Program-made: the position numbers and the translations under genes
Notes under the pieces: generated by a model
The model's database searches: none
The model's input: the letters and a program-made list of their open reading frames with translations, nothing else
What the model was told of the DNA's origin: nothing
Part shown: piece after piece, positions 43,745-60,914 of the stretch
Layout: each line of letters opens with the position of its first letter
Position numbering within the stretch: position 1 is the first letter of the stretch
Assembly: GCA_951406725.2 (NCBI GenBank)
Contig: OX597839.1
Location: 19,468,001 to 19,532,000, forward strand
Direction of reading: 5' to 3'
Origin: Octopus vulgaris
Lineage: Eukaryota
DNA length: 64,000 bases

Positions 43745-43961
43745 CTTTATTTAAAAGCAGCAGAAAATTCAACAAAACCTGTTACTCTGAGCTTCACGTT
43801 CCCGTTCGTCGGACAGTTTTTGCTGACGAACGGGAACGTGAAACTCAGAGTAACAGGTTTTGTTGAATTTTCTGCTGCTTTTAAATAAAGCATATTACTC
43901 TACACCTGGTATTTGAGTACTCTTTTTTCCACCTTGTTTCACATTTATGTGTTTACTCCGG
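43745..43961. mobile_element. 66-bp-arm palindrome plus tail with hammerhead motif; putative PLE pLTR insertion
   Basis: Arms 43745-43810 / 43825-43890; right arm reads CTGACGA-ACG ggaa CGT-GAAA-CTC a GAG-TA-acag; (TA)n on both sides. Confidence 0.75.
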
Positions 43962-43967
43962 TATATG

Positions 43968-44004
<37 letters not shown>

Positions 44005-44354
44005 CATTATAAGCATCACATCACACATACATACATATACGCATGCATACATACGCGCACTTATGTTTCTGTATATATAAATTCGCACATATATACATAC
44101 ATATATAGCTCTGTCTGCGTGGGTGTGTGTAGCTTGCTTACCAACCTCGTGGTCCTGGGTTCAGTCTCACTGCATAGCACTTTGGGCAAGTGTCTTCTAC
44201 TACAGCATCGGGCCGACCAAAGCCTCGTGAGTGGATTTGGCAGACGGAAACTGAAAGAAACTCGTCGTAGATATATATATATATATAAACATTGGCCAGA
44301 AAAAATTTGGTATTGCGTTGTTTGTGCATTGATATATATATACACACAAATATT

Positions 44355-44741
44355 TTATAATTATAAACATAATTATAATTAGGGTTCAGCTAATTGCTTC
44401 ACCACATACCGAATTTAGAAATAGGAGTTAAAATTCCATTTCTACTACTATAAGAATCTCCATGACGGTAACATACTTTTTTACGAAGGCAAAGAGAAAA
44501 ACAATGAATCAACACAACCAGGATTAACTATATACGCGTTTCGAGATTAAAGTGATTTAAATTTTACTTACTTCTCTCTTCAGTATAGTATTTCCAATTA
44601 TAAAATTTGAAAGTGCTAGGCTAAATATGCACACAATCGAGCGATATCATTATAGTAGCAGAAAAGGAATTTTAACTCCTATTTCTAAATTCGGTATGTG
44701 GTGAAGCAATTAGCTGAACCCTAATTATAATTATGTTTATA

Positions 44742-44748
<7 letters not shown>
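44355..44748. mobile_element. 99-bp inverted-repeat element with hammerhead in the spacer (copy 2 at 53002-53396)
   Basis: Arms 44355-44453 / 44650-44748; TA-rich flanks. Confidence 0.8.
44527..44589 (-). ncRNA. Minimal type I hammerhead ribozyme motif (copy 2 at 53174-53236)
   Basis: Minus strand ACTATA-CTGAAGA-GAGA...TCTC-GAAA-CGCG-TA-TATAGT; palindromic ACGCGT stem III is typical of PLE hammerheads. Confidence 0.88.
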
Positions 44749-44785
<37 letters not shown>

Positions 44786-45151
44786 GCAAACACAACACAA
44801 TACCAATTTTTTCTGGCCGATCTTCGGACATTTATTGTCCGAAGATCGGCAACCGTGTATTAGGGTAACATCGCACGAAACTTCAACTTACAAACAGCGC
44901 GTCACCCTTCTTCGTTCTAATGTCATTACTGTCTACGTATTCTCCTTTCTCCTTTTTATGATTGTATGTGGATGTATGCACACACACACACGTATATGGA
45001 TACATATATGTATATATGTGTGTATATAATATATATGCATATATATATATTATATATATATATGCATATATATATATACATATGTATATAAATATACATA
45101 TATGTGTGCATATATATATATATACATACATGTATATATATATATAAACAT

Positions 45152-45227
<76 letters not shown>

Positions 45228-45267
45228 ATTCATACATGTATATATAATATATATATATATATATATT

Positions 45268-45315
<48 letters not shown>

Positions 45316-45330
45316 GAATATGTATATATA

Positions 45331-46207
45331 GATGCACCAAAAAAAACTATACTGATTTAACAATACAGTAATGTGGGGTGATTATAAGCGAGAATGAAGC
45401 AACAAGAATGGATAGGTTTTTAGTACAATCGTTTCATACAAGGACAGGTTTTATTAAAAGTTGCAAAGATTACAGCATATAAACGTGTCCCGTACTCATC
45501 AGCTAAAATACATGTGAGTTCTCTAGACATCCTAGTGGTTGAGGCTATACTCATGAAGTAATGTAGATAATTAAGTAACATAAACAGATTTCAAAAGTTC
45601 ATTACAGCCTCTTGTAAATAGCAGTAATGTGATTAATGTGGCAAATACCTAATCATATAGCAAGAATTGATACCTACCTCATTGTGTTCAACCATTGATA
45701 AATTTATCGCCTGTGAATATGAAATTCCTTGGAAATTTACACCTACACCATTGGAAATTGTGCATCTATACAAAGGATTAATTCACCCTCTCTGTAATGC
45801 TAATAAGCAGGAATTGAAACCCACCTCGTTGTAATTAACAATGGATAAATTTGCCTTCTGTGAGTATGTAATCCCTCATCATATCTCTGGAAATTCATAT
45901 GTGCACTATGGATTGGGTCACCTTCTCTGTGATGCTATTAAGACTTTTTAAAATTCTGTGATAAGACTGTACATCATCTTTAAAGAACTTTAATGAACTT
46001 TTGAAATCTGTTTATGTTACTTAATTATCTACATTACTTCATGAGTATAGCCTCAACCACTAGGATGTCTAGAGAACTCACATGTATTTTAGCTGATGAG
46101 TACGGGACACGTTTATATGCTGTAATCTTTGCAACTTTTAATAAAACCTGTCCTTGTATGAAACGATTGTACTAAAAACCTATCCATTCTTGTTGCTTCA
46201 TTCTCGC
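45331..46207. mobile_element. 217-bp inverted-repeat element with a hammerhead in each arm (copy 2 at 53957-54896)
   Basis: Arms 45388-45604 / 45991-46207, 386-bp spacer, one-sided extension on the left; (TA)n flanks. Confidence 0.82.
46087..46177 (+). ncRNA. Type I hammerhead motif with long stem II (mirror at 45418-45508, minus; copy 2 at 54776-54866)
   Basis: TTTTAG-CTGATGA-GTACGGGACA...TGTCCTTGTAT-GAAA-CGATTG-TA-CTAAAA; GUA triplet ends at 46171. Confidence 0.85.
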
Positions 46208-46238
46208 GTATATATATATATATATATATTCATACATG

Positions 46239-46278
<40 letters not shown>

Positions 46279-46360
46279 TACATGTATATATAAATATATA
46301 TATATATATATATTCATACATGTATATATAAATATATATATATATATATATTCATACATG

Positions 46361-46394
<34 letters not shown>

Positions 46395-46477
46395 TAATAC
46401 ATGTATATATATATATATATATATTCATACATGTATATATATATATATATTCATACATGTATATATATATATATATT

Positions 46478-46520
<43 letters not shown>

Positions 46521-46521
<1 letters not shown>

Positions 46522-47231
46522 GTGAAATAGAAAGATGAATAATCTTGTAGTAGATTAATCAAAAGTTTAACCGATACCTTAGTAGCAAAAATCACAGCAG
46601 TAAAACAGCACGGTTGGAGGTACAACCATATGGTGTTGCAACCGTGCGTTGGTGCGGATAATTGAAATTAGAACATTATTGGTGAATTGAAATGGAGCTG
46701 AACGCAGATTGAACAGAAATCGTTTTATTTCATTCTACACGTGTTTCGAAAGGCACAATTACCAAAATCCGATGGAATAATGGGATACATATTGTGTCTT
46801 TCTCTTCAGGAAGAAAATAGGAAATCCGTTGAAAAAACAAAACAGAATAGAGGCGGAGCAAATACAAATCGAACTATGCTCCTAAGAGCCCATGGCGAAA
46901 CTGTTTATCAGTGTATGTTGAGAACGGTGGCTGAAGAATTCAACGGGACCCGTTGAATTCTTCAGCCACCGGTTCTCAACATACACTGATAAACAGTTTC
47001 GCCATGGGCTCTTAGGAGCATAGTTCGATTTGTTTTTGCTCCGCCTCTATTCTGTTTTTGTTTTTCCAACGGATTTCCTATTTTCTTCCTGAAGAGAAAG
47101 ACACAATATGGTCCCATTATTCCATCGGATTTTATGGTAATTTGTGCCTTTCGAAACACTGTGTAGAATGAAATAAAACGATTTCTGTTCAATCTGCGTT
47201 CAGCTCCATTTCTTCAATTCACCAATAATGT

Positions 47232-47232
<1 letters not shown>
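46521..47232. mobile_element. ~560-bp palindrome plus one-sided tail, with hammerheads (copy 2 at 55206-55916)
   Basis: Palindrome 46672-47232 centred on A46948 (acggg-A-cccgt); tail 46521-46671 with hairpin 46608-46647; (TA)n flanks. Confidence 0.82.
46733..46812 (-). ncRNA. Type I hammerhead motif with long stem II (mirror at 47086-47168, plus; intact copy at 55776-55855)
   Basis: TTC-CTGAAGA-GAAAGacacaa...ttgtgcCTTTC-GAAA-CACGTG-TA-GAA; palindromic ACACGTGT stem III. Confidence 0.85.
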
Positions 47233-47263
<31 letters not shown>

Positions 47264-48233
47264 TACATGTATATATATATATATATATTCATACATGTAT
47301 ATATATATATATATATTCATACATGTATATATATATATATTCATACATGTATATATATATATATATATTCATACATGTATATATATATATATTCATACAT
47401 GTATATATATATATATATATACATACATGTATATATATATATATTCATACATATATATATATATATATATATTCATACATGTATATATATATATATTCAT
47501 ACATGTATATATATATGTAGTCATACATGTATATATATGTAGTCATACATGTATATATATATATATTCATACATGTATATATATGTACAGTCATACATAT
47601 ATATATATATATATATATATACATACATATATATATGCATACATATATATATATACATACATGTATATATACATACATATATATGCATACATGTATATAT
47701 ATATATATATACATATATACATATATATATATATATATGTACATATGTGTATGTATGTATATATGCGTATATATATCTATATGTGTGTATGTACATATGT
47801 GTGTGTGTATATATATATATATATAAACGCATGAGATGAGTGTGTATGCGTGTATGCCCCCGGGTATCTGTGCTTGTTGCCTGCTGTTTTAAGTGCGATC
47901 AGATGACCTTTACGTTTTATTACGGGTGCATTCCATCCCAATGTACCAGCCCATGCATCTACCCCATCCCAGTGCCATATAACTCATCAACAACGAAATT
48001 TCCAAAATATACCCAACCCACCGCTTCCACTGTTCCGCCACGCCTCCACCCCACTGGGCTTGCCAATTCTCTTCCCCTCCTCTAGCCATCCGCTCACACT
48101 CATCAATCCTCACTAATTTAGTTCACACACACAAATACACACACGCATCCTACATACATACATACATACATACATACATACATACATACATACATACATA
48201 CATACAATATAGATAGATAGATAGATAGATAGG

Positions 48234-48267
<34 letters not shown>

Positions 48268-49098
48268 TAGATTAGATAGATAGATAGATAGATAGACAGA
48301 TAGATAGACAGATAGATGGATGGATGGATGGATAGGTAGATACATACATACATACATACACACATGCATACATACACACACATAGGTATATACACATTAA
48401 TACTCATATAGATGTAGGCATAAATCAGTACATACACTCACACACACACATACATACACGTTCACACACACATACACACATAGATATACCCTTAAATGAA
48501 CACATTAATGCCTACATATACACACGTGCACCCACACACATATTTACTGACATACACATAGACAAATTAGCACACTCAGACACACAGACAGATATACAAC
48601 AGTTTATATATAGTAGTGAATGTGTACACACATACATATAATCACAAATGCACATACACATGCACACGCACGCGGGTTGGGGCAAATATTGACATCAATG
48701 GGTACACACGCATACACGGATATACATAAACACCCACAGACGAATACAGACTACAATGGGTATACAGACGTACACATACACACGCAGTCAAAGACACACA
48801 CACAGAAATAATGACATGGATGAGTATGGACACACACATGCACACAAAGACACACACACATAAACGTACGCAAATATAGTCAATGATGTGTAAACACACG
48901 CACACACCCACAAGCACTCAAACGCACATAAATACTGACATGAACGGGTATACATAGATATACATACACATAGTCCTCCCCCTCACATATCCACCCCCTC
49001 AGACACATCATCATCAGTCCATCCCCCACTACACCCCATCCCACCCCACCGACATACAAACACGCAAATGCAAACATCAACAGATACACACACATAAA

Positions 49099-49334
49099 GG
49101 CGGTGAGCTGGCAGAAACGTTAGCACGCCGGGCGAAATGCTTAGCAGTATTTCGTCTGCCGCTACGTTCTGAGTTCAAATTCCGCCGAGGTTGACTTTGC
49201 CTTTCATCCTTTCGGGGTCGATAAATTAAGTACCAGTTACGCACTGGGGTCGATATAATCGACTTAATCCGTTTGTCTGTCCTTGTTTGTCCTTTCTGTG
49301 TTTAGCTAGCCCCTTGTGGGTGGTAAAGAAATAG
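49099..49334 (+). mobile_element. SINE family B, full-length monomer (copy 2 at 57843-58078)
   Basis: ggcggtgagctggcagaaacg head, B box gagttcaaattcc, core cctttcatcctttcggggtcgataaattaagtaccag. Confidence 0.9.
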
Positions 49335-49786
49335 ATCCACACACTCTCACACAAACACTCATAAACAGTAAGAAATAAATAAGTAGCGAGGGGGTTGGGT
49401 GAGGTGGAGCGTGGTGAGGGCAGTGGAATCGTTGCAGCATGGGATAGGATGCCGCGTGGTATTTGTTCCGCGTCACTGCGTTCCGAGCTCAAACTCCACC
49501 GTCATGAACTTGGCTTTTCACCCTCTAAGGGTCGATTAATTGTCAGTTCAGTCCTCGCAATTTTCCCATCGCTCTCTCGCTCTTCCTCTCTCTACAGATA
49601 CATACATATATACCTGTGCACATAAAATGAATCACAGGACATACTAAGTATGTCTACCTACTGGAAATGCCAGTCGTCTGTATTATTGATTCTGTTTTTA
49701 TCATTTTTAATTGTTACAACAGATACTAACAGAGTCAATAATATCTTCGCAAATATTTTCTCCTGAATTATTTGCTCCGTATTGTA

Positions 49787-49840
<54 letters not shown>

Positions 49841-49843
<3 letters not shown>

Positions 49844-50171
49844 CGCATGGCTCAGTGGTTAGAGCGTCGAGTTTACGATCGTGAGGTTGTGAGCTCGAAT
49901 CCCGGACCGGGCTGCGTGTTGTGTTCTCGAGCAAGGCACTTTATTTCACGTTGCTCCAGTTCACTCAGCTGTAGAAATGAGTTGCGACGTCACTGGTGCC
50001 AAGCTGTATCGACCTTTGTCTTTCCCTTGGATAACACTGGTGGCGTGGAGAGGGGAGGCTGGTATGCATGGGCGACTGCTAGCCTTCCATAAACAACCTT
50101 GCCCGGACTTGTGTCTAGGAGGGTAACTTTCTAGGTGCAATCCCATGGTCATTCATGACCGAAGGGGGTCT
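49841..50171 (+). mobile_element. tRNA-headed SINE family C, full length (copy 2 at 58579-58909)
   Basis: A box tggctcagtgg, B box gagctcgaatccc, followed by a CORE-like gagcaaggcacttt...cagctgtagaaatgag segment. Confidence 0.88.
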
Positions 50172-50220
50172 TTACCCTATATATATATATACAGTTCAGG
50201 AGTTGTACATAACTGTACAT

Positions 50221-50298
<78 letters not shown>

Positions 50299-50301
<3 letters not shown>

Positions 50302-50697
50302 GGCATAAGGGATGTGCTCAAGGGAAGGTTGGACAGGACCACCCGCGCCAATAGCACAGTTCTACCTGCAACGTTATATAGTAGTGAAACATGAGCAACA
50401 ACAAAGAGGGAAGAACAGAGATTGGAAACGGCTCAAGGAGCCATGGAGAGGTCAATGCGTGGGATCTCGCTGAGAGAGCACATCAGTAGCGAGGTCATCA
50501 GAGAGAATTCCGGCGTGAGGGATGTCATCGTAGAATATATACGCAGCAAGTTTAGGTAATCGGTGGACCCGCGCAGTCATCGAGTGGTACCCGCGCGACG
50601 AGCGGAAACGACCACTCGGAAGGCCTCTACAACGGTGGAGTTACGATTTCAGGAGGACGATTGGGATCATGTGGATGAGAAAGGCGCGATCGAGAGA
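50299..50697 (+). pseudogene. RTE-clade LINE ORF C-terminal fragment (copy 2 at 59047-59445)
   Basis: Translates ...TVLPATLYSSET*ATTKREEQRLETAQGAMERSMRGISLREHISSEVIRENSGVRDV... and EWYPRDERKRPLGRPLQRW, typical of the RTE post-RT region; stops and frameshifts present. Confidence 0.8.
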
Positions 50698-51069
50698 AGA
50701 GTCATGGAACGGATAGTCAGAGGGAAACCAATCGCATTCCTTGAAGAAAATAATTTGCAGAGTGATCCCCAGCATGGCTTTCGACCGGGTAGGAGCTGCT
50801 TGACCCAGCTTTTACAACATTAAGACTGGGAGTTGAGGCAGTTACTCAAGAACTCAAACGTGGACGTATCATACCTTGATTTTGCAAAAGCTTTTGATAA
50901 ATTCGATCATGGTATGATATGCCACAAATTGCGTGATCTCCGCATAACTGGAAAACTTGGAGAGTGGTTACATAACTTTCTGAAGGATAGAAGTCAGGCA
51001 GTAGTGGTCAATGGCCCTACCTCAATGAAAACACAAATAGTGAGCGGTGTTCCACAGGGCACTGTCTTG
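50698..51069 (+). pseudogene. CR1-group LINE reverse transcriptase fragment (copy 2 at 59446-59817)
   Basis: VMERIV...QHGFRPGRSCLTQLL...YLDFAKAFDKFDH...WLHNFLKDRSQ...SGVPQGTVL; one in-frame stop. Confidence 0.92.
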
Positions 51070-51421
51070 TGAGAATATTTAGTGGACAGAAACTGAAAGA
51101 AGCTCGTCATGTGTGTGTGTGTGCATGTATGTCTATATGGATGTATGTGTTTTTATGCATATATATATATAAATATCTGTATCTATATATATATATACGC
51201 ACGCTCAAACTTTCACAAGTATATACATGTGTGTGTGCGTGTGTTTGTCCGTCTGCATCACTTGACAACTGGGTATTGTGTTTTACGTTCTCGAAACTAG
51301 CGGTTCGGCAAAAAATACTGATAGAATATGTACAAAATGTTAATTACAATTTGTCAAGGCTGTGCCCTAGTATGGCCGCATTTTGATGATGAAACAAAGA
51401 AGAAATAAGAGTTAAACTACA

Positions 51422-51474
<53 letters not shown>

Positions 51475-52345
51475 CGCTGCTCTTTCAATTTCTTGACCCG
51501 GTATGTTGAGCTGTCTGGAAATTCCCCGTTGGAAAAGCCTGCCTTTGTGATATCGTCTGCTATTTCAGACATTCTAGCGGGGCGGATATCACTGTACATT
51601 TTTCTCAGTATTTTGAATTCCTGAATGTAAGTAGTGTTATGTAATCCGTTGTAATATCACGTAGCCCTGTCGCAGATACCCGACACTGAAGTAAGACAAT
51701 CGTTCGTGTCATGGCTTCCTTAGTTTCCTCATAAATCAACGCAGTAGATTGGCGTTTCCCAAGGTTTTAGACCTAAAGGAATGTAAATATTCTTTCCGAG
51801 GTGAAGCTGACGTTGCCAGACAATTGGTTGCTTTGAGACTTGTGTGTTGAGACTAAAGCAATTACAGCGTGGAAGACATATATTATAAGCCAGTTAAAAA
51901 CACACTAAGATTCTTAACTTCACTTAACCATTTATTATTCGGTGACAAAAGCATTCATCGCACCCAGTGTGACTTGGTCACTGACGCAGTTACATTGCTT
52001 ATATATATATATACTCTTTTACTTGCTTCAGTCATTTGGCTGTGGCCACGCTGGAGCACCGCCTTTAGTTGAGCAAATCGACCCCAGGACTTATTCTTTG
52101 TAAGGAATTCTCCCGTTTTGTTTCCAGTTGCAGTAGACGTTTGCCAAAAGGCCCGCAAACAGGTCTGGCGTTGTAATAAATAATAATATGTATATTTAAA
52201 TGATAAAGAAGAAAATCTCGAAGTACAAGGATGTGGATGGATATAGAGATAACCCGAATGTGGAACCTGGAGGCAACAAACAATCCCTGGGAGTTGAATT
52301 AAGTGGCTTCTAGCGGCGGAAGTCCGAACTACAATGGACTTATCC

Positions 52346-52445
52346 NNNNNNNNNNNNNNNNNNNNNNNNNNNNNNNNNNNNNNNNNNNNNNNNNNNNNNN
52401 NNNNNNNNNNNNNNNNNNNNNNNNNNNNNNNNNNNNNNNNNNNNN
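52346..52445. other. Assembly gap (100 N)
   Basis: Direct reading. Confidence 1.
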
Positions 52446-52551
52446 GTTGAATTTTCTGCCGCTTTTAAATAAAGCATATTACTCTACACCTGGTATTTGA
52501 GTACTCTTTTTTCCACCTTGTTTCACATTTATGTGTTTACTCCGGTATATG

Positions 52552-52605
<54 letters not shown>

Positions 52606-52932
52606 ATAATATACGTTCAAGTATCACACATACATACATATACGCATGCATACATACGCGCACTTATGTTTCTGTATATATAAATTCGCACATATATACA
52701 TACATATATAGCTCTGTCTGCGTGGGTGTGTGTAGCTTGCTTACCAACCTCGTGGTCCTGGGTTCAGTCTCAATGCATAGCACTTTGGGCAAGTGTCTTC
52801 TACTACAGCATCGGGCCGACCAAAGCCTCGTGAGTGGATTTGGCAGACGGAAACTGAAAGAAACTCGTCGTAGATATATATATATATATAAACATTGGCC
52901 AGAAAAAATTTGGTATTGCGTTGTTTGTGCAT

Positions 52933-52987
<55 letters not shown>

Positions 52988-53389
52988 TACACACACATAT
53001 TTTATAATTATAAACATAATTATAATTAGGGTTCAGCTAATTGCTTCACCACATACCGAATTTTAAAATAGGAGTTAAAATTCCATTTCTGCTACTATAA
53101 GAATCTCCATGACGGTAACATACTTTTTTACGAAGGCAAAGAGAAAAACAATGAATCAACACGACCAGGATTAACTATATACGCGTTTCGAGATTAAAGT
53201 GATTTAAATTTTACTTACTTCTCTCTTCAGTATGGTATTTCCAATTATAAAATTTGAAAGTGCTAGAGCTAAATATGCACACAATCGAGCGATATCATTA
53301 TAGTAGCAGAAAAGGAATTTTAACTCCTATTTCTAAATTCGGTATGTGGTGAAGCAATTAGCTGAACCCTAATTATAATTATGTTTATA

Positions 53390-53429
<40 letters not shown>

Positions 53430-53848
53430 GCAAACACAACACAATACCAATTTTTTTCTGGCCGATCTTCGGACATTTATTGTCCGAAGATCGGCAACCG
53501 TGTATTAGGGTAACATCGCACGAAACTTCAGCTTACAAACAGCGCGTCACCCTTCTTCGTTCTAATGTCATTACTGTCTACGTATTCTCCTTTCTCCTTT
53601 TTATGATTGTATGTGGATGTATGCACACACACACGTATATGGATACATATATGTATATATGTGTGTATATAATATATATGCATATATATATATTATATAT
53701 ATATATGCATATATATATATACATATGTATATAAATATACATATATGTGTGCATATATATATATATATACATACATGTATATATATATATAAACATACAT
53801 GTATGTATATATATATATATATATATATCATACATATATATATATATT

Positions 53849-53888
<40 letters not shown>

Positions 53889-54927
53889 TACATGTATATA
53901 TAAATATATATATATATATATATTCATACATGTATATATAAATATATATATATATACAAAAAGCAATAAAGATTCAAGTTAATTTAAATGAATTTACTTG
54001 AATATGGTACCTAACTTAGATGCACCAAAAAAAACTATACTGATTTAACAATACAGTAATGTGGGGTGATTATAAGCGAGAATGAAGCAACAAGAATGGA
54101 TAGGTTTTTAGTACAATCGTTTCATACAAGGACAGGTTTTATTAAAAGTTGCAAAGATTACAGCATATAAACGTGTCCCGTACTCATCAGCTAAAATACA
54201 TGTGAGTTCTCTAGACATCCTAGTGGTTGAGGCTATACTCATGAAGTAATGTAGATAATTAAGTAACATAAACAGATTTCAAAAGTTCATTACAGCCTCT
54301 TGTAAATAGCAGTAATGTGATTAATGTGGCAAATACCTAATCATATAGCAAGAATTGATACCTACCTCATTGTGTTCAACCATTGATAAATTTATCGCCT
54401 GTGAATATGAAATTCCTTGGAAATTTACACCTACACCATTGGAAATTGTGCATCTATACAAAGGATTAATTCACCCTCTCTGTAATGCTAATAAGCAGGA
54501 ATTGAAACCCACCTCGTTGTAATTAACAATGGATAAATTTGCCTTCTGTGAGTATGTAATCCCTCATCATATCTCTGGAAATTCATATGTGCACTATGGA
54601 TTGGGTCACCTTCTCTGTGATGCTATTAAGACTTTTTTAAAATTCTGTGATAAGACTGTACATCATCTTTAAAGAACTTTAATGAACTTTTGAAATCTGT
54701 TTATGTTACTTAATTATCTACATTACTTCATGAGTATAGCCTCAACCACTAGGATGTCTAGAGAACTCACATGTATTTTAGCTGATGAGTACGGGACACG
54801 TTTATATGCTGTAATCTTTGCAACTTTTAATAAAACCTGTCCTTGTATGAAACGATTGTACTAAAAACCTATCCATTCTTGTTGCTTCATTCTCGCGTAT
54901 ATATATATATATATATATTCATACATG

Positions 54928-54967
<40 letters not shown>

Positions 54968-55049
54968 TACATGTATATATAAATATATATATATATATAT
55001 ATTCATACATGTATATATAAATATATATATATATATATATTCATACATG

Positions 55050-55082
<33 letters not shown>

Positions 55083-55163
55083 TAATACATGTATATATAT
55101 ATATATATATATTCATACATGTATATATATATATATTCATACATGTATATATATATATATATT

Positions 55164-55209
<46 letters not shown>

Positions 55210-56029
55210 AAATAGAAAGATGAATAATCTTGTAGTAGATTAATCAAAAGTTTAACCGATACCTTAGTAGCAAAAATCACAGCAGTAAAACAGCACGGTT
55301 GGAGGTACAACCATATGGTGTTGCAACCGTGCGTTGGTGCGGATAATTGAAATTAGAACATTATTGGTGAATTGAAGAAATGGAGCTGAACGCAGATTGA
55401 ACAGAAATCGTTTTATTTCATTCTACACGTGTTTCGAAAGGCACAAATTACCAAAATCCGATGGAATAATGGGACCATATTGTGTCTTTCTCTTCAGGAA
55501 GAAAATAGGAAATCCGTTGGAAAAACAAAAACAGAACAGAGGCGGAGCAAAAACAAATCGAACTATGCTCCTAAGAGCCCATGGCGAAACTGTTTATCAG
55601 TGTATGTTGAGAACCGGTGGCTGAAGAATTCAACGGGACCCGTTGAATTCTTCAGCCACCGGTTCTCAACATACACTGATAAACAGTTTCGCCATGGGCT
55701 CTTAGGAGCATAGTTCGATTTGTTTTTGCTCCGCCTCTGTTCTGTTTTTGTTTTTCCAACGGATTTCCTATTTTCTTCCTGAAGAGAAAGACACAATATG
55801 GTCCCATTATTCCATCGGATTTTGGTAATTTGTGCCTTTCGAAACACGTGTAGAATGAAATAAAACGATTTCTGTTCAATCTTATTAGCTCCATTTCTTC
55901 AATTCACCAATAATGTATATATATATATACATGTATATATATATATACATACATGTATATATATATATATATATATGTGTACATGTATATATATATATAT
56001 ATATACATACATGTATATATATATATATT

Positions 56030-56074
<45 letters not shown>

Positions 56075-56130
56075 ATATATATATACATGTATATATATAT
56101 ATATATATACATGTATATATATATATATTC

Positions 56131-56176
<46 letters not shown>

Positions 56177-56883
56177 CATACATGTATATATATATGTAGT
56201 CATACATGTATATATATGTAGTCATACATGTATATATATATATATTCATACATGTATATATATGTACAGTCATACATATATATATATATATATATACATA
56301 CATGTATATAAATATACATATATATATATACATACATGTATATATACATACATATATATATGCATACATGTATATATATATATATATACATATATACATA
56401 TATATATATATATGTAGATATGTGTATGTATGTATATATGCGTATATATATCTATATGTGTGTATGTACATATGTGTGTGTGTATATATATATATATATA
56501 AACGCATGAGATGAGTGTGTATGCGTGTATGCCCCCGGGTATCTGTGCTTGTTGCCTGCTGTTTTAAGTGCGATCAGATGACCTTTACGTTTTATTACGG
56601 GTGCATTCCATCCCAATGTACCAGCCCATGCATCTACCCCATCCCAGTGCCATATAACTCATCAACAACGAAATTTCCAAAATATACCCAACCCACCGCT
56701 TCCACTGTTCCGCCACGCCTCCACCCCACTGGGCTTGCCAATTCTCTTCCCCTCCTCTAGCCATCCGCTCACACTCATCAATCCTCACTAATTTAGTTCA
56801 CACACACAAATACACACACGCATCCTACATACATACATACATACATACATACATACATACATACATACATACATACATACAAT

Positions 56884-56932
<49 letters not shown>

Positions 56933-56998
56933 CAGATAGATAGACAGATAGATAGGTAGATACATACATACATACATACATACATACATACATACAAT

Positions 56999-57043
<45 letters not shown>

Positions 57044-58530
57044 CAGATAGATAGACAGATAGATGGATGGATGGATAGGTAGATACATACATACATACAT
57101 ACACACATGCATACATACACACACATAGGTATATACACATTAATACTCATATAGATGTAGGCATAAATCAGTACATACACTCACACACACACATACATAC
57201 ACGTTCACACACACATACACACATAGATATACCCTTAAATGAACACATTAATGCCTACATATACACACGTGCACCCACACACATATTTACTGACATACAC
57301 ATAGACAAATTAGCACACTCAGACACACAGACAGATATACAACAGTTTATATATAGTAGTGAATGTGTACACACATACATATAATCACAAATGCACATAC
57401 ACATGCACACGCACGCGGGTTGGGGCAAATATTGACATCAATGGGTACACCCGCATACACGGATATACATAAACACCCACAGACGAATACAGACTACAAT
57501 GGGTATACAGACGTACACATACACACCCAGTCAAAGACACACACACAGAAATAATGACATGGATGGGTATGGACACACACATGCACACAAAGACACACAC
57601 ACATAAACGTACGCAAATATAGTCAATGATGTGTAAACACACGCACACACCCACAAGCACTCAAACGCACATAAATACTGACATGAACGGGTATACATAG
57701 ATATACATACACATAGTCCTCCCCCTCACATATCCACCCCCTCAGACACATCATCATCAGTCCATCCCCCACATACACCCCATTCCACCCCACCGACATA
57801 CAAACACGCAAATGCAAACATCAACAGATACACACACATAAAGGCGGCGAGCTGGCAGAAACGTTAGCACGCCGGGCGAAATGCTTAGCAGTATTTCGTC
57901 TGCCGCTACGTTCTGAGTTCAAATTCCGCCGAGGTTGACTTTGCCTTTCATCCTTTCGGGGTCGATAAATTAAGTACCAGTTACGCACTGGGGTCGATAT
58001 AATCGACTTAATCCGTTTGTCTGTCCTTGTTTGTCCTTTCTGTGTTTAGCTAGCCCCTTGTGGGTGGTAAAGAAATAGATCCACACACTCTCACACAAAC
58101 ACTCATAAACAGTAAGAAATAAATAAGTAGCGAGGGGGTTGGGTGAGGTGGAGCGTGGTGAGGGCAGTGGAATCGTTGCAGCATGGGATAGGATGCCGCG
58201 TGGTATTTGTTCCGCGTCACTGCGTTCCGAGCTCAAACTCCACCGTCATGAACTTGGCTTTTCACCCTCTAAGGGTCGATTAATTGTCAGTTCAGTCCTC
58301 GCAATTTTCCCATCGCTCTCTCGCTCTTCCTCTCTCTACAGATACATACATATATACCTGTGCACATAAAATGAATCACAGGACATACTAAGTATGTCTA
58401 CCTACTGGAAATGCCAGTCGTCTGTATTATTGATTCTGTTTTTATCATTTTTAATTGTTACAATAGATACTAACAGAGTCAATAATATCTTCGCAAATAT
58501 TTTCTCCTGAATTATTTGCTCCGTATTGTA

Positions 58531-58581
<51 letters not shown>

Positions 58582-58962
58582 CGCATGGCTCAGTGGTTAG
58601 AGCGTCGAGCTTACGATCGTGAGGTTGTGAGCTCGAATCCCGGACCGGGCTGCGTGTTGTGTTCTCGAGCAAGGCACTTTATTTCACGTTGCTCCAGTTC
58701 ACTCAGCTGTAGAAATGAGTTGCGACGTCACTGGTGCCAAGCTGTATCGACCTTTGTCTTTCCCTTGGATAACACTGGTGGCGTGGAGAGGGGAGGCTGG
58801 TATGCATGGGCGACTGCTAGCCTTCCATAAACAACCTTGCCCGGACTTGTGTCTAGGAGGGTAACATTCTAGGTGCAATCCCATGGTCATTCATGACCGA
58901 AGGGGGTCTTTACCCTATATATATATATATATATATACAGTTCAGGAGTTGTACATAACTGT

Positions 58963-59049
<87 letters not shown>

Positions 59050-60164
59050 GGCATAAGGGATGTGCTCAAGGGAAGGTTGGACAGGACCACCCGCGCCAAT
59101 AGCACAGTTCTACCTGCAACGTTATATAGTAGTGAAACATGAGCAACAACAAAGAGGGAAGAACAGAGATTGGAAACGGCTCAAGGAGCCATGGAGAGGT
59201 CAATGCGTGGGATCTCGCTGAGAGAGCACATCAGTAGCGAGGTCATCAGAGAGAATTCCGGCGTGAGGGATGTCATCGTAGAATATATACGCAGCAAGTT
59301 TAGGTAATCGGTGGACCCGCGCAGTCATCGAGTGGTACCCGCGCGACGAGCGGAAACGACCACTCGGAAGGCCTCTACAACGGTGGAGTTACGATTTCAG
59401 GAGGACGATTGGGATCATGTGGATGAGAAAGGCGCGATCGAGAGAAGAGTCATGGAACGGATAGTCAGAGGGAAACCAATCGCATTCCTTGAAGAAAATA
59501 ATTTGCAGAGTGATCCCCAGCATGGCTTTCGACCGGGTAGGAGCTGCTTGACCCAGCTTTTACAACATTAAGACTGGGAGTTGAGGCAGTTACTCAAGAA
59601 CTCTAACGTGGACGTAACATACCTTCATTTTGCAAAAGCTTTTGATAAATTCGATCATGGTATGATATGCCACAAATTGCGTGATCTCCGCATAACTGGA
59701 AAACTTGGAGAGTGGTTACATAACTTTCTGAAGGATAGAAGTCAGGCAGTAGTGGTCAATGGCCCTACCTCAATGAAAACACAAATAGTGAGCGGTGTTC
59801 CACAGGGCACTGTCTTGTGAGAATATTTAGTGGACAGAAACTGAAAGAAGCTCGTCATGTGTGTGTGTGCATGTATGTCTATATGGATGTATGTGTTTTT
59901 ATGCATATATATATAAATATCTGTATCTATATATATACGCACGCTCAAACTTTCACAAGTATATACATGTGTGTGTGCGTGTGTTTGTCCGTCTGCATCA
60001 CTTGACAACTGGGTATTGTGTTTTACGTTCTCGAAACTAGCGGTTCGGCAAAAAATACTGATAGAATATGGACAAAATGTTAATTACAATTTGTCAAGGC
60101 TGTGCCCTAGTATGGCCGCATTTTCATGATGAAACAAAGAAGAAATAAGAGTTAAACTACAACC

Positions 60165-60211
<47 letters not shown>

Positions 60212-60914
60212 TGCTCTTTCAATTTCTTGACCCGGTATGTTGAGCTGTCTGGAAATTCCCCGTTGGAAAAGCCTGCCTCTGTGATATCGTCTGCTATTTC
60301 AGACATTCTAGCGGGGCGGATATCACTGTACATTTTTCTCAGTATTTTGAATTCCTGAATGTAAGTAGTGTTATGTAATCCGTTGTAATATCACGTAGCC
60401 CTGTCGCAGATACCCGAAACTGAAGTAAGACAATCGTTCGTGTCATGGCTTCCTTAGTTTCCTCATAAATCAACGCAGTAGATTGGCGTTTCCCAAGGTT
60501 TTAGACCTAAAGGAATGTAAATATTCTTTTCTAAGTGAAGCTGACGTTGCCAGACAATTGGTTGCGTTGAGACTTGTGTGTTGAGACTAAAGCAATTACA
60601 GCGTGGAAGACATATATTATAGCCAGTTAAAACACACACTAAGTTTCTTAACTTCACTTAACCATTTATTATTCGGTGACAAAAGTATTCATCGCACCCA
60701 GTGTGACTTGGTCACTGACGCAGTTACATTGCTTATATATATATATACTCTTTTACTTGCTTCAGTCATTTGACTGTGGCCACGCTGGAGCACCGCCTTT
60801 AGTTGAGCAAATCGACCCCAGGACTTATTCTTTGTAAGGAATTCCCCCGTTTTGTTTCCAGTTGCAGTAGACTTTTGCCAAAAGACCCGCATACACACGT
60901 CTGGCATTGTAATA

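Follow-up and report, generated by a model that had tools for sequence, protein, structure and literature searches.

The window analysed here, 64,000 nt of Octopus vulgaris DNA, contains between positions 43745 and 47232 a dense cluster of palindromic elements in TA-rich tracts, which raises the question of what kind of mobile element is able to produce such a pile-up. The initial annotation had proposed a novel and diverse guild of ORF-less, hammerhead-bearing families related to Penelope-like elements (PLEs) and retrozymes. The cluster consists of four mutually unrelated elements, E1 to E4 (Table 1), with no cross-match better than E=0.2. The four element starts, the inverted arms, the TA-type flanks and the absence of mutual similarity were borne out, and the one-sided tails are present in E1, E3 and E4. 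Very probably, E1, E3 and E4 represent 5'-truncated, back-to-back 3' ends (pseudo-LTRs, pLTRs) of three Hydra-type Penelope-like families, and E2 a fragment of an ORF-less unit of 560 nt that such elements likely mobilise, with each of the four likely resulting from nicking of both strands of a TA target and two RNA copyings, with a proximal and a distal start, which were likely joined head to head. For E1, E3 and E4, this origin is indicated by the identity with parents encoding RT and GIY-YIG, two main 3' ends, the pairing of short with long ends and the TA flanks. A block from ~43.86 kb recurs at 52.4-60.7 kb (94-97% identity), with a 100-N gap (52346-52445) in between; since it is duplicated across this gap, its motifs do not count as an independent second set.

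Table 1. Features of the cluster and its flanks (positions within the window)
Feature	Position	Strand	Description
(TA)n target tract left of E1	43687..43744	.	sequence
E1 inverted arm	43745..43821	-	short family 3' end, +42 from predicted cleavage site
E1 inverted-arm hammerhead	43812-43783	-	U4C core CCGACGA, GAAG (A15.1G), predicted dead
E1 direct arm	43823..43961	+	~66-nt tail, long end +108; core CTGACGA
E2 main copy	44347..44650	-	part of 560-nt ORF-less head-to-tail unit
E2 hammerhead, intact type I	44583-44533	-	stem I 6 bp, II 4 bp, III ACGCGT
E2 inverted arm	44650..44746	+	3' part of unit, without hammerhead
E5	44785..44870	.	35-bp hairpin 44816-44850, CCGAAGA core
TA-type array left of E3	45000..45330	.	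sequence
E3 inverted arm	45331..45607	-	pLTR end and 52 nt tail (5' UTR of next unit); 99.6% to parent 5' pLTR and tail
E3 inverted-arm hammerhead	45502-45424	-	descriptor
E3 direct arm	45608..46210	+	last ~600 nt of 3' UTR/pLTR of 4713-bp-period Hydra PLE (parent L096); short 3' end +41
E3 direct-arm hammerhead	46093-46171	+	descriptor
TA-type array between E3 and E4	46211..46520	.	sequence
E4 inverted arm	46521..46947	-	~151-nt tail 46521-46671, long end about +222 to +227; 97% to parent L097
E4 inverted-arm hammerhead	46809-46736	-	descriptor
E4 direct arm	46948..47232	+	short 3' end +70; 98% to parent L097, 3624-bp-period PLE
E4 direct-arm hammerhead	47089-47165	+	descriptor
TA-type array right of E4	47233..47825	.	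sequence

A type I hammerhead descriptor requiring at least 3 bp in each of stems I, II and III detected five motifs in 43745-47232 (44583 -, 45502 -, 46093 +, 46809 -, 47089 +) and none in 500 dinucleotide shuffles of this region. A hammerhead with pairing stems had been ascribed to all elements, which holds for E2, E3 and E4 but not for E1, without an intact motif in the window, nor for E5, for which the descriptor gave no complete fold. Likewise, the palindromic nature of stem III has to be qualified, as ACTCaGAGT and ACGATTGT are only near-palindromes. The proposed Rfam scan revealed no hammerhead, neither among the 150 matches listed of 560 for the window, all miRNA-type, nor for E3 alone even at E<=10. 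MFE folds did not contain a full hammerhead (z about -0.7 to +0.8), and cleavage by the ribozymes is predicted to be weak, to occur in dimers or to be assisted by protein. The weaker fifth hammerhead element claimed at 44785 (E5) is unsupported, given its CCGAAGA core, incomplete fold and missing family: exact and word-based searches, which may miss old copies, detected none beyond this one and that in the local duplicate. Its left ~35 nt recur inverted at about 44292-44328, and a weak likeness to E1 (73% over 56 nt, E=0.017) suggests that it is possibly a decayed relative of this element.

The annotation had further named a core no better conserved than its flanks as a possible refutation. 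Across 43 rows of E2, the core was less diverged than loop II and flanks together (17/430 vs 197/2795, non-CpG, p=0.016) but only slightly less than the flanks alone (4.0% vs 5.3%), so that the difference is weak. This is a weak test anyway because the copies likely decay neutrally, and covariation between subfamilies is more informative. In stem I of E2, three of the six pairs were altered on both sides, with 18 such cells vs 6.6 in shuffles and at most 4 in slid controls, although related sequences can beat a shuffle without any structure. Inverted arms and TA flanks would also be expected from MITEs derived from a DNA transposon of the Tc1/mariner type, which duplicates its TA target, the hammerheads then being there by chance. 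Against this stand the shuffles, the covariation of stem I, the asymmetric ends and variable junctions, while fixed symmetric TIRs shared with a DDE element were not found. As the parents encode RT and GIY-YIG, this origin is refuted and its probability practically nil. The original proposal of TA-targeting families of the PLE/retrozyme type with type I hammerheads was right.

The suggested search for a parent with RT plus GIY-YIG endonuclease was successful for E3 (L096, 954 aa) and E4 (L097, 895 aa). Both encode a single ORF with a telomerase-like RT followed by a C-terminal GIY-YIG domain, and the window copies are 97-99% identical to the 3' ends of these young PLEs. L096 is arranged in the order TA, inverted pLTR, pLTR, 954-aa ORF, 3' UTR, pLTR, tail and TA, and L097 consists of head-to-tail 3624-bp units. 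The predicted parent structure (pLDDT 75) had TERT as top structural match (E=7e-9), and the GIY-YIG endonuclease motif pattern is present in E3 and E4. Pfam recognised neither parent protein individually and, among 30 relatives, reported GIY-YIG in three and RVT_1 in one; a PDB sequence search with a single parent protein gave no match and an alignment-based search one retron RT (E=0.009). The E3 parent is covered in part, together with both TA-abutting ends, by contigs of four sequencing runs with a guessed RNA status; these contigs are uninformative on transcription or cleavage.

Membership in the Hydra clade was assessed by the criteria of Craig et al. (2021; PMC8557442). RWK37, DKT124 and CxCX5C at 815 were found in E3, RWL37 (a variant of RWK) and DKT122 in E4. 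YRDD is present in the Hydra-type parents, CxxC and CxH flanking conserved E and N occur in E3 and E4, and the CCHH finger is absent, with a two-cysteine GIY-YIG core in 0/30 aligned proteins including E3 and E4. Moreover, L096 and L097 feature pLTRs from partial tandems, an inverted 5' copy and a tail. The E4 linker kept one of four cysteines and gained a 17-aa insertion at 7/7 covering loci, while all four cysteines were kept in the other 29 aligned proteins; over residues 1-481, E4 is 44% identical to E3. As the linker CxCX5C motif is not preserved, E4 was filed as Hydra-like rather than as a member. The motifs and a by-eye comparison with reference proteins point to E3 and E1 as Hydra-clade PLEs. 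In the literature searched, mostly at overview level, neither a U4C PLE family nor a linker-less Hydra element was described.

For E1, only the C-terminal half of the parent protein was recovered, leaving the RWK/DKT region uncovered, and no full-length parent was found among the fetched loci. In L169, the E1 hammerhead is located ~1.1 kb after a Hydra-type endonuclease and linked to it via sequence common to other copies; in L168, it follows such an endonuclease across an internal deletion. CxCX5C is present in L161 and L168, and CxxC and CxH occur in the E1 parent. Within the window, the core of the right (direct) arm is canonical, but the 5' side of stem I is missing there (0 bp); the left (inverted) arm does have stem I, together with CCGACGA and GAAG. 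The canonical CTGACGA of the direct arm is likely a product of CpG decay of CCGACGA. U4C occurs in 84 of the first 100 among the matches listed of 1526, with intact stems. A small subfamily (L094, L145) has canonical cores in its two arms, and further hammerhead families also show CCGA cores. The arms of E3 (25/25) and E4 (33/33) carry canonical hammerheads, overlapping loci being kept in both counts; in the right arm of E4, stem III contains an insertion of 1 nt, which is absent from the copy in the duplicate block.

Two main 3' ends were found per family, at about +42 and +108 for E1, +41 and +151/+162 for E3, and +68/+70 and +220 to +227 for E4. The proposed enrichment of (TA)n flanks was confirmed: (TA)4 occurred within 12 nt of the end in 22/22 cases for E3, 27/27 for E4, 59/70 for E1 and 12/26 for E2, the ends of which are smeared, vs a background of 3-12%. 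Palindromes joined one short and one long end at 35/37 two-arm loci (E1 23/25, the remaining two being long and long; E3 5/5; E4 7/7), where the loci are top-scoring matches and the end classes are thus biased toward query-covered regions. From 20 consecutive pattern matches of E1, all 11 opposite-strand pairs were short plus long. This pairing fits an initiation of reverse transcription at two sites. By analogy with the Poseidon element PAc (Frangieh et al., 2024; PMC11167929), the RT-endonuclease protein would nick both strands of the TA tract and the element RNA would be copied twice, from a proximal and a distal internal start site, whereupon the two short copies would likely be joined head to head. 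The hammerhead would be a passenger in the pLTR, setting neither insert end, and the pile-up would be explained by many families inserting into one TA-rich hot spot.

As offered in PMC8557442, a single cDNA could instead fold back, with the endonuclease resolving the hairpin at an internal TA-like site to give a short end and a one-sided tail. Truncation of both arms within ~10 nt of one point (L004, L006, L017, L018, L022, L026), E1 junctions that are in some cases centred on short palindromes, and TA-rich words of the element's own sequence next to the short ends of E3 and E2 would be in line with this. Nevertheless, simple fold-back is insufficient for L010, L019, L041, L042 and the window copy of E3 because each arm has sequence missing from the other, and loci with a tail on the shorter arm and none on the longer need two templated copies or later trimming. 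Additionally, the tail of PAc coincides in vitro with the stretch that separates two RT start sites (PMC11167929). Fold-back is accordingly regarded as rather unlikely.

Two-site copying likewise has to be weighed against the idea that the short palindromes form retrozyme-like, non-autonomous families in their own right, in which the whole unit is copied and selection favours ribozymes on both strands. An argument for such units is E2, with a circularly permuted, ORF-less unit of 560-nt period carrying one type I hammerhead, to which no in-register ORF was linked in 30/30 loci. Besides, the 5' ends of E1 cluster within ~25 nt of the core in 16/20 consecutive loci, as a short master might yield; junctions at stem I were considered for all families and proved true only of E1, not of E3 and E4. 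The junctions differ from copy to copy, however, from -7 to about -600 in E3, so that the palindrome is not the copied unit, and for E3 and E4 the near-identity of the arms with autonomous elements already contradicts this origin. Moreover, the E2 hammerhead is single and central and the 94-nt arms, which had been described as hammerhead-bearing, do not include it; hence it lies on one strand only. Both E1 cores in the window are defective. Ribozymes on both strands, as annotated for the whole cluster, thus remain for E3 and E4, where they are likely a by-product of inversion, and a self-standing origin is improbable. Cores of E2 are canonical in 17/18 pattern matches, which excludes U4C as a feature of this family. 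Only partial tandems of under two units and no autonomous partner linked to E2 were found in the fetched loci, and a Hydra-type ORF 1.5 kb from the E2 copy in L171 was rejected as parent as unrelated repeats lie between. E2 is likely a protein-less, retrozyme-like relative.

The cluster is therefore made up of new families of an already known element type and not of a new ORF-less guild. The latter was overstated, since three of the four elements are 5'-truncated ends of coding Hydra-type PLEs with a published architecture (PMC8557442, PMC4209133): the window copies are indeed ORF-less, but the families E1, E3 and E4 are protein-coding. The diversity of the guild was confirmed by at least eight further hammerhead types within 0.67 Mb of flanking sequence. 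New beyond the known architecture are the two 3' ends, the short and long pairing, the cysteine loss of E4 and U4C in E1. Tentatively, at least a dozen Hydra-type families with hammerheads may be in a burst of activity in this genome, which would amount to a natural experiment on the PLE mechanism. E4 would then target TA without the linker zinc finger proposed for targeting, strong cleavage would be dispensable or selected against because E1, its ribozyme weakened by U4C, spread to >1,500 arms and CCGA cores are found elsewhere too, and the near-fixed pairing would reflect one protein dimer priming two strands from two start sites in vivo. Candidates for testing this clade biochemically are provided by the Hydra-type ORFs, which are intact and nearly identical. 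The contrast of E3 and E4 addresses whether microsatellite targeting is driven by the cysteine finger of the linker, and that of E1 (U4C) with E3 and E4 whether the hammerhead matters. The short and long rule allows the two-start-site model, which had only been established for a Poseidon element, to be read out at genome scale. It is easy to mistake such ends for MITEs, and both Pfam and Rfam missed them here.

Among known systems, Naiad/Chlamys PLEs, known from Octopus, share (TA)n targets, inverted copies and tails; their N-terminal endonuclease and lack of canonical hammerheads differ from the C-terminal endonuclease and canonical motifs seen here, which rules out this identity. E2 resembles non-LTR retrozymes (Cervera and de la Pena, 2020, PMC7229834; bioRxiv 10.64898/2026.07.22.740005) in that its head-to-tail units lack an ORF, carry one type I hammerhead each and occur alongside PLEs, but differs in unit length (560 nt vs 150-450 bp quoted), partial tandems and PLE-like inverted arms and tails. 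With Poseidon PAc of Anolis, the families share two 3' ends that bound the tail, AT-rich targets and a cleavage site (here predicted) that is not an insertion end. PAc belongs to another clade; the start sites here are 66-157 nt apart, and the ORF starts downstream of the hammerhead and both ends instead of containing them. The closest resemblance is to the Hydra clade, whose published members include one from Octopus, Hydra-1_Obim, and for which type I hammerheads, inverted 5' copies and (TA)n targets are on record; Penelope-13_HM has an inverted 5' copy with hammerheads on both strands (PMC8557442 File S1/S2), and opposite-strand pairs 100-700 bp apart are also known (PMC4209133). As in Hydra-1_Obim, Hydra-2_Amil and Penelope-13_HM, a single ORF with RT before GIY-YIG, RWK, DKT, CxxC and CxH without CCHH, and CxCX5C in E3 and E1 are found, as are a pLTR type I hammerhead with near-palindromic stem III, (TA)n targets and an inverted 5'-truncated copy that places hammerheads on both strands. 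Stems I and III of E1 match Hydra-2_aMil (PMC8557442 File S2), and by eye the proteins are homologous to yet distinct from Hydra-1_Obim. Unlike the clade in general, E3 and E4 are 4.7 and 3.6 kb long (generally <3 kb) with low-complexity linkers and long 3' UTRs, the families are young and abundant with open ~980-aa frames, stem II regions span 34-60 nt in E2-E4, tails reach 66-157 nt (usually 30-40), E4 has lost three of four linker cysteines and E1 is mostly U4C.

The four main elements of the cluster (E1 to E4) were located where the initial annotation had placed them, and sequence comparison confirmed that they have no significant sequence in common. A type I hammerhead descriptor recognized five motifs in the cluster region compared with none in 500 dinucleotide shuffles; the assertion that every element carries a hammerhead nevertheless holds only in part. 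The E1 copy is defective, lacking the 5' strand of stem I in its right arm and featuring two core changes in its left, the single central E2 hammerhead lies outside the inverted arms, and E5 fails the descriptor. E5 is not supported as a hammerhead element, and genomic searches gave no copies of it besides a local duplicate. The region's block recurs beyond an N gap at 52.4-60.7 kb, perhaps as an uncollapsed haplotype, i.e., a false duplication of two haplotypes. Further features are compiled below.

Features of the cluster, its surroundings and related loci
Feature	Sequence	Position	Strand	Description
E1	window	43745-43961		palindromic element
E2	window	44347-44746		palindromic element, placed as though inserted into the middle of a pre-existing palindrome
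E3	window	45331-46210		palindromic element
E4	window	46521-47232		palindromic element
E5	window	44785-44870		weaker fifth
Inverted repeat	window	44292-44328, 44785-44820		~35 bp, found only here, brackets E2, TA tracts inside
Sixth palindrome	window	36213-36332	both	120 bp; intact type I hammerheads with a 6-bp stem I and a 4-bp stem III (8-nt loop), cores 36277 (+) and 36268 (-); related copies at L007, L149, L203
Tandem arrays	window	36413-36781, 37532-38383		184-185-bp dispersed repeat; type I hammerhead descriptor found none
Block repeat	window	43860-52345, 52446-60734		~8.5 kb, 94-97% identical, 100-N gap between
Fourth Hydra-type ORF	L171	4412-7001	-	frameshifted, 52-60% identical to E3; linker cysteines partly lost, as in E4
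Inverted pair of another PLE type	L098	5917-7863		adjoins E4 tandem array; GIY-YIG core with two cysteines, cysteine finger upstream; presumably Neptune-like

Arm queries against the 2.8-Gb genome gave 486-2158 first-look candidates each, 40 of which were scored each time. Arms could be extended to protein-coding parents, namely for E3 (locus L096) and E4 (L097), with window arms 97-99.6% identical to the corresponding parent segments. L096 has a period of 4713 bp and begins with TA and an inverted pseudo-LTR (pLTR); these are followed by a direct, hammerhead-bearing pLTR, an ORF of 954 aa, a 3' UTR of 1.5 kb, another pLTR that ends in a tail, and again TA. Stop-free frames of at least 947 aa surround 9 of 150 scored endonuclease matches. 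L097 consists of 3624-bp head-to-tail units with an 895-aa ORF. Pfam missed both parent proteins; the structure modeled from an alignment of 30 sequences (pLDDT 75) had telomerase RT as its first structural match. The E1 hammerhead lies downstream of a related endonuclease in two loci (L168, L169), and no full-length copy was recovered among the E1 loci. Besides, P0012, an annotated Octopus sinensis ankyrin protein, begins with ~200 residues that match the N-terminal part of a Hydra-type RT at 69% identity to E3, which probably reflects a gene-model chimera.

Insertion ends were analyzed in top-scoring matches, no random sample, excluding window copies and overlapping loci (three E3, five E4, two E2 and seven E1, one of these needlessly). 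Two main 3' ends occur in each of E1, E3, and E4, and E2 ends are smeared at about +170-200 and +300-315 from the predicted cleavage site, which itself coincides with no main end class. Short and long ends were combined in one palindrome at 5/5 E3, 7/7 E4, and 23/25 E1 loci of this top-scoring set, and likewise wherever 20 consecutive E1 pattern matches included an opposite-strand pair (11/11). The proposed (TA)n enrichment was upheld in this set, with TA after 22/22 E3, 27/27 E4, 59/70 E1, and 12/26 E2 ends (background 3-12%); pure TA runs constitute 22% of the cluster region and 11% of the window. In the consecutive E1 matches on C1 (L207-L226), homology ends within ~25 nt upstream of the core in 16/20, the pattern itself forcing 7 nt. 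This upstream stop, absent from E3 and E4, could reflect initiation of transcription, stalling of the RT or copying from a short master.

For a Poseidon element, Frangieh (2024; PMC11167929) demonstrated nicking and extension of both target strands, initiation of reverse transcription at two internal positions that delimit the tail, and hammerhead cleavage that requires the protein and is dispensable for insertion in vitro. By analogy, octopus inserts would arise from two truncated cDNAs, one per start site, joined head-to-head. We infer two cDNA copies as the origin of the palindromes because in L010, L019, L041, L042, and the window E3 either arm has sequence missing from the other, which speaks against fold-back of a cDNA with endonuclease resolution, a rival kept alive by symmetric junctions at six loci. 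Folding of monomers did not yield a full hammerhead, and every stem III motif self-pairs at -5.8 to -10.3 kcal/mol, which would be in line with dimer cleavage as outlined in PMC4209133 and PMC6765202.

E2 copies run upstream into sequence found downstream of their own hammerhead, from which a 560-nt unit follows, with an in-register ORF at 0/30 loci. Among 41 aligned hammerheads (40 of 43 rows plus the window copy; two extensively deleted rows and one second arm omitted), three stem I pairs changed on both sides. This gives 18 cells, whereas shuffles gave 6.6 and slid controls no more than 4; such counts are inflated by shared descent, though three different pairs are involved. E2 resembles non-LTR retrozymes as portrayed in PMC7229834 and bioRxiv 10.64898/2026.07.22.740005, with partial tandems of under two units at the loci retrieved.

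A pile of four families is unusual, since only 7 of 125 loci feature a second of the four within 3.2 kb and none three together. Flanks totaling 0.67 Mb contained at least eight other hammerhead types, compared with none in 0.29 Mb of shuffles. Unrelated type I types, at least seven besides that of the sixth palindrome, were noted in flanks at L015/L096, L038, L044, L050, L059, L066, L074, L088, and L191. Plausibly, many families, a common target and the choice of an outlier by scanning would let such a pile be expected a few times per genome. The cluster is real, non-random and largely explained, with new families of an already known element kind.

Searching for an E1 pattern whose core positions were left free yielded 1526 matches, sampling one subfamily; the first 100 listed comprised 84 CCGA (U4C), 9 CTGA, 5 CCAA, and 2 other cores. 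Since CCGA prevails there, C-to-T changes affect the adjoining CpG in 8 of the same 100 and the two arms of a single insertion often differ at the U4C site, it is likely that U4C was already present in the E1 source and that the window E1 owes its canonical core to CpG decay. In a minor subfamily (L094, L145), both arms have the canonical core. Other families showed CCGA in 3/13 matches, one of which shares its palindrome with a CTGA arm. According to PMC3088659, a natural U4C variant is less active in vitro and still supports viroid infectivity. Descriptors requiring CUGA would overlook such hammerheads.

At each of the seven loci covering the linker, E4 retains a single linker cysteine out of four and carries an insertion of 17 aa; the other 29 aligned proteins possess all four. 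Craig (2021; PMC8557442) connected the linker with TA targeting, and E4 is TA-flanked at 27/27 ends of the top-scoring set despite this loss. Alternatively, E4 could be mobilized in trans by another family. The significance lies in the loss of linker cysteines in E4, the variant core of E1 and the rule by which ends pair, rather than in the cluster itself. Craig (2021) defines the Hydra clade by a C-terminal endonuclease that lacks CCHH, by the motifs RWK, DKT, CxCX5C, and CxxC/CxH, by canonical hammerheads and by (TA)n targets. Hydra-1_Obim from Octopus bimaculoides is listed there, as is Penelope-13_HM, which has an inverted 5' copy and thereby hammerheads on either strand. Judged by motifs, E3 shows every one examined, E1 agrees within its recovered part apart from its core variant, and E4, deviating in the linker motif, is filed as Hydra-like.
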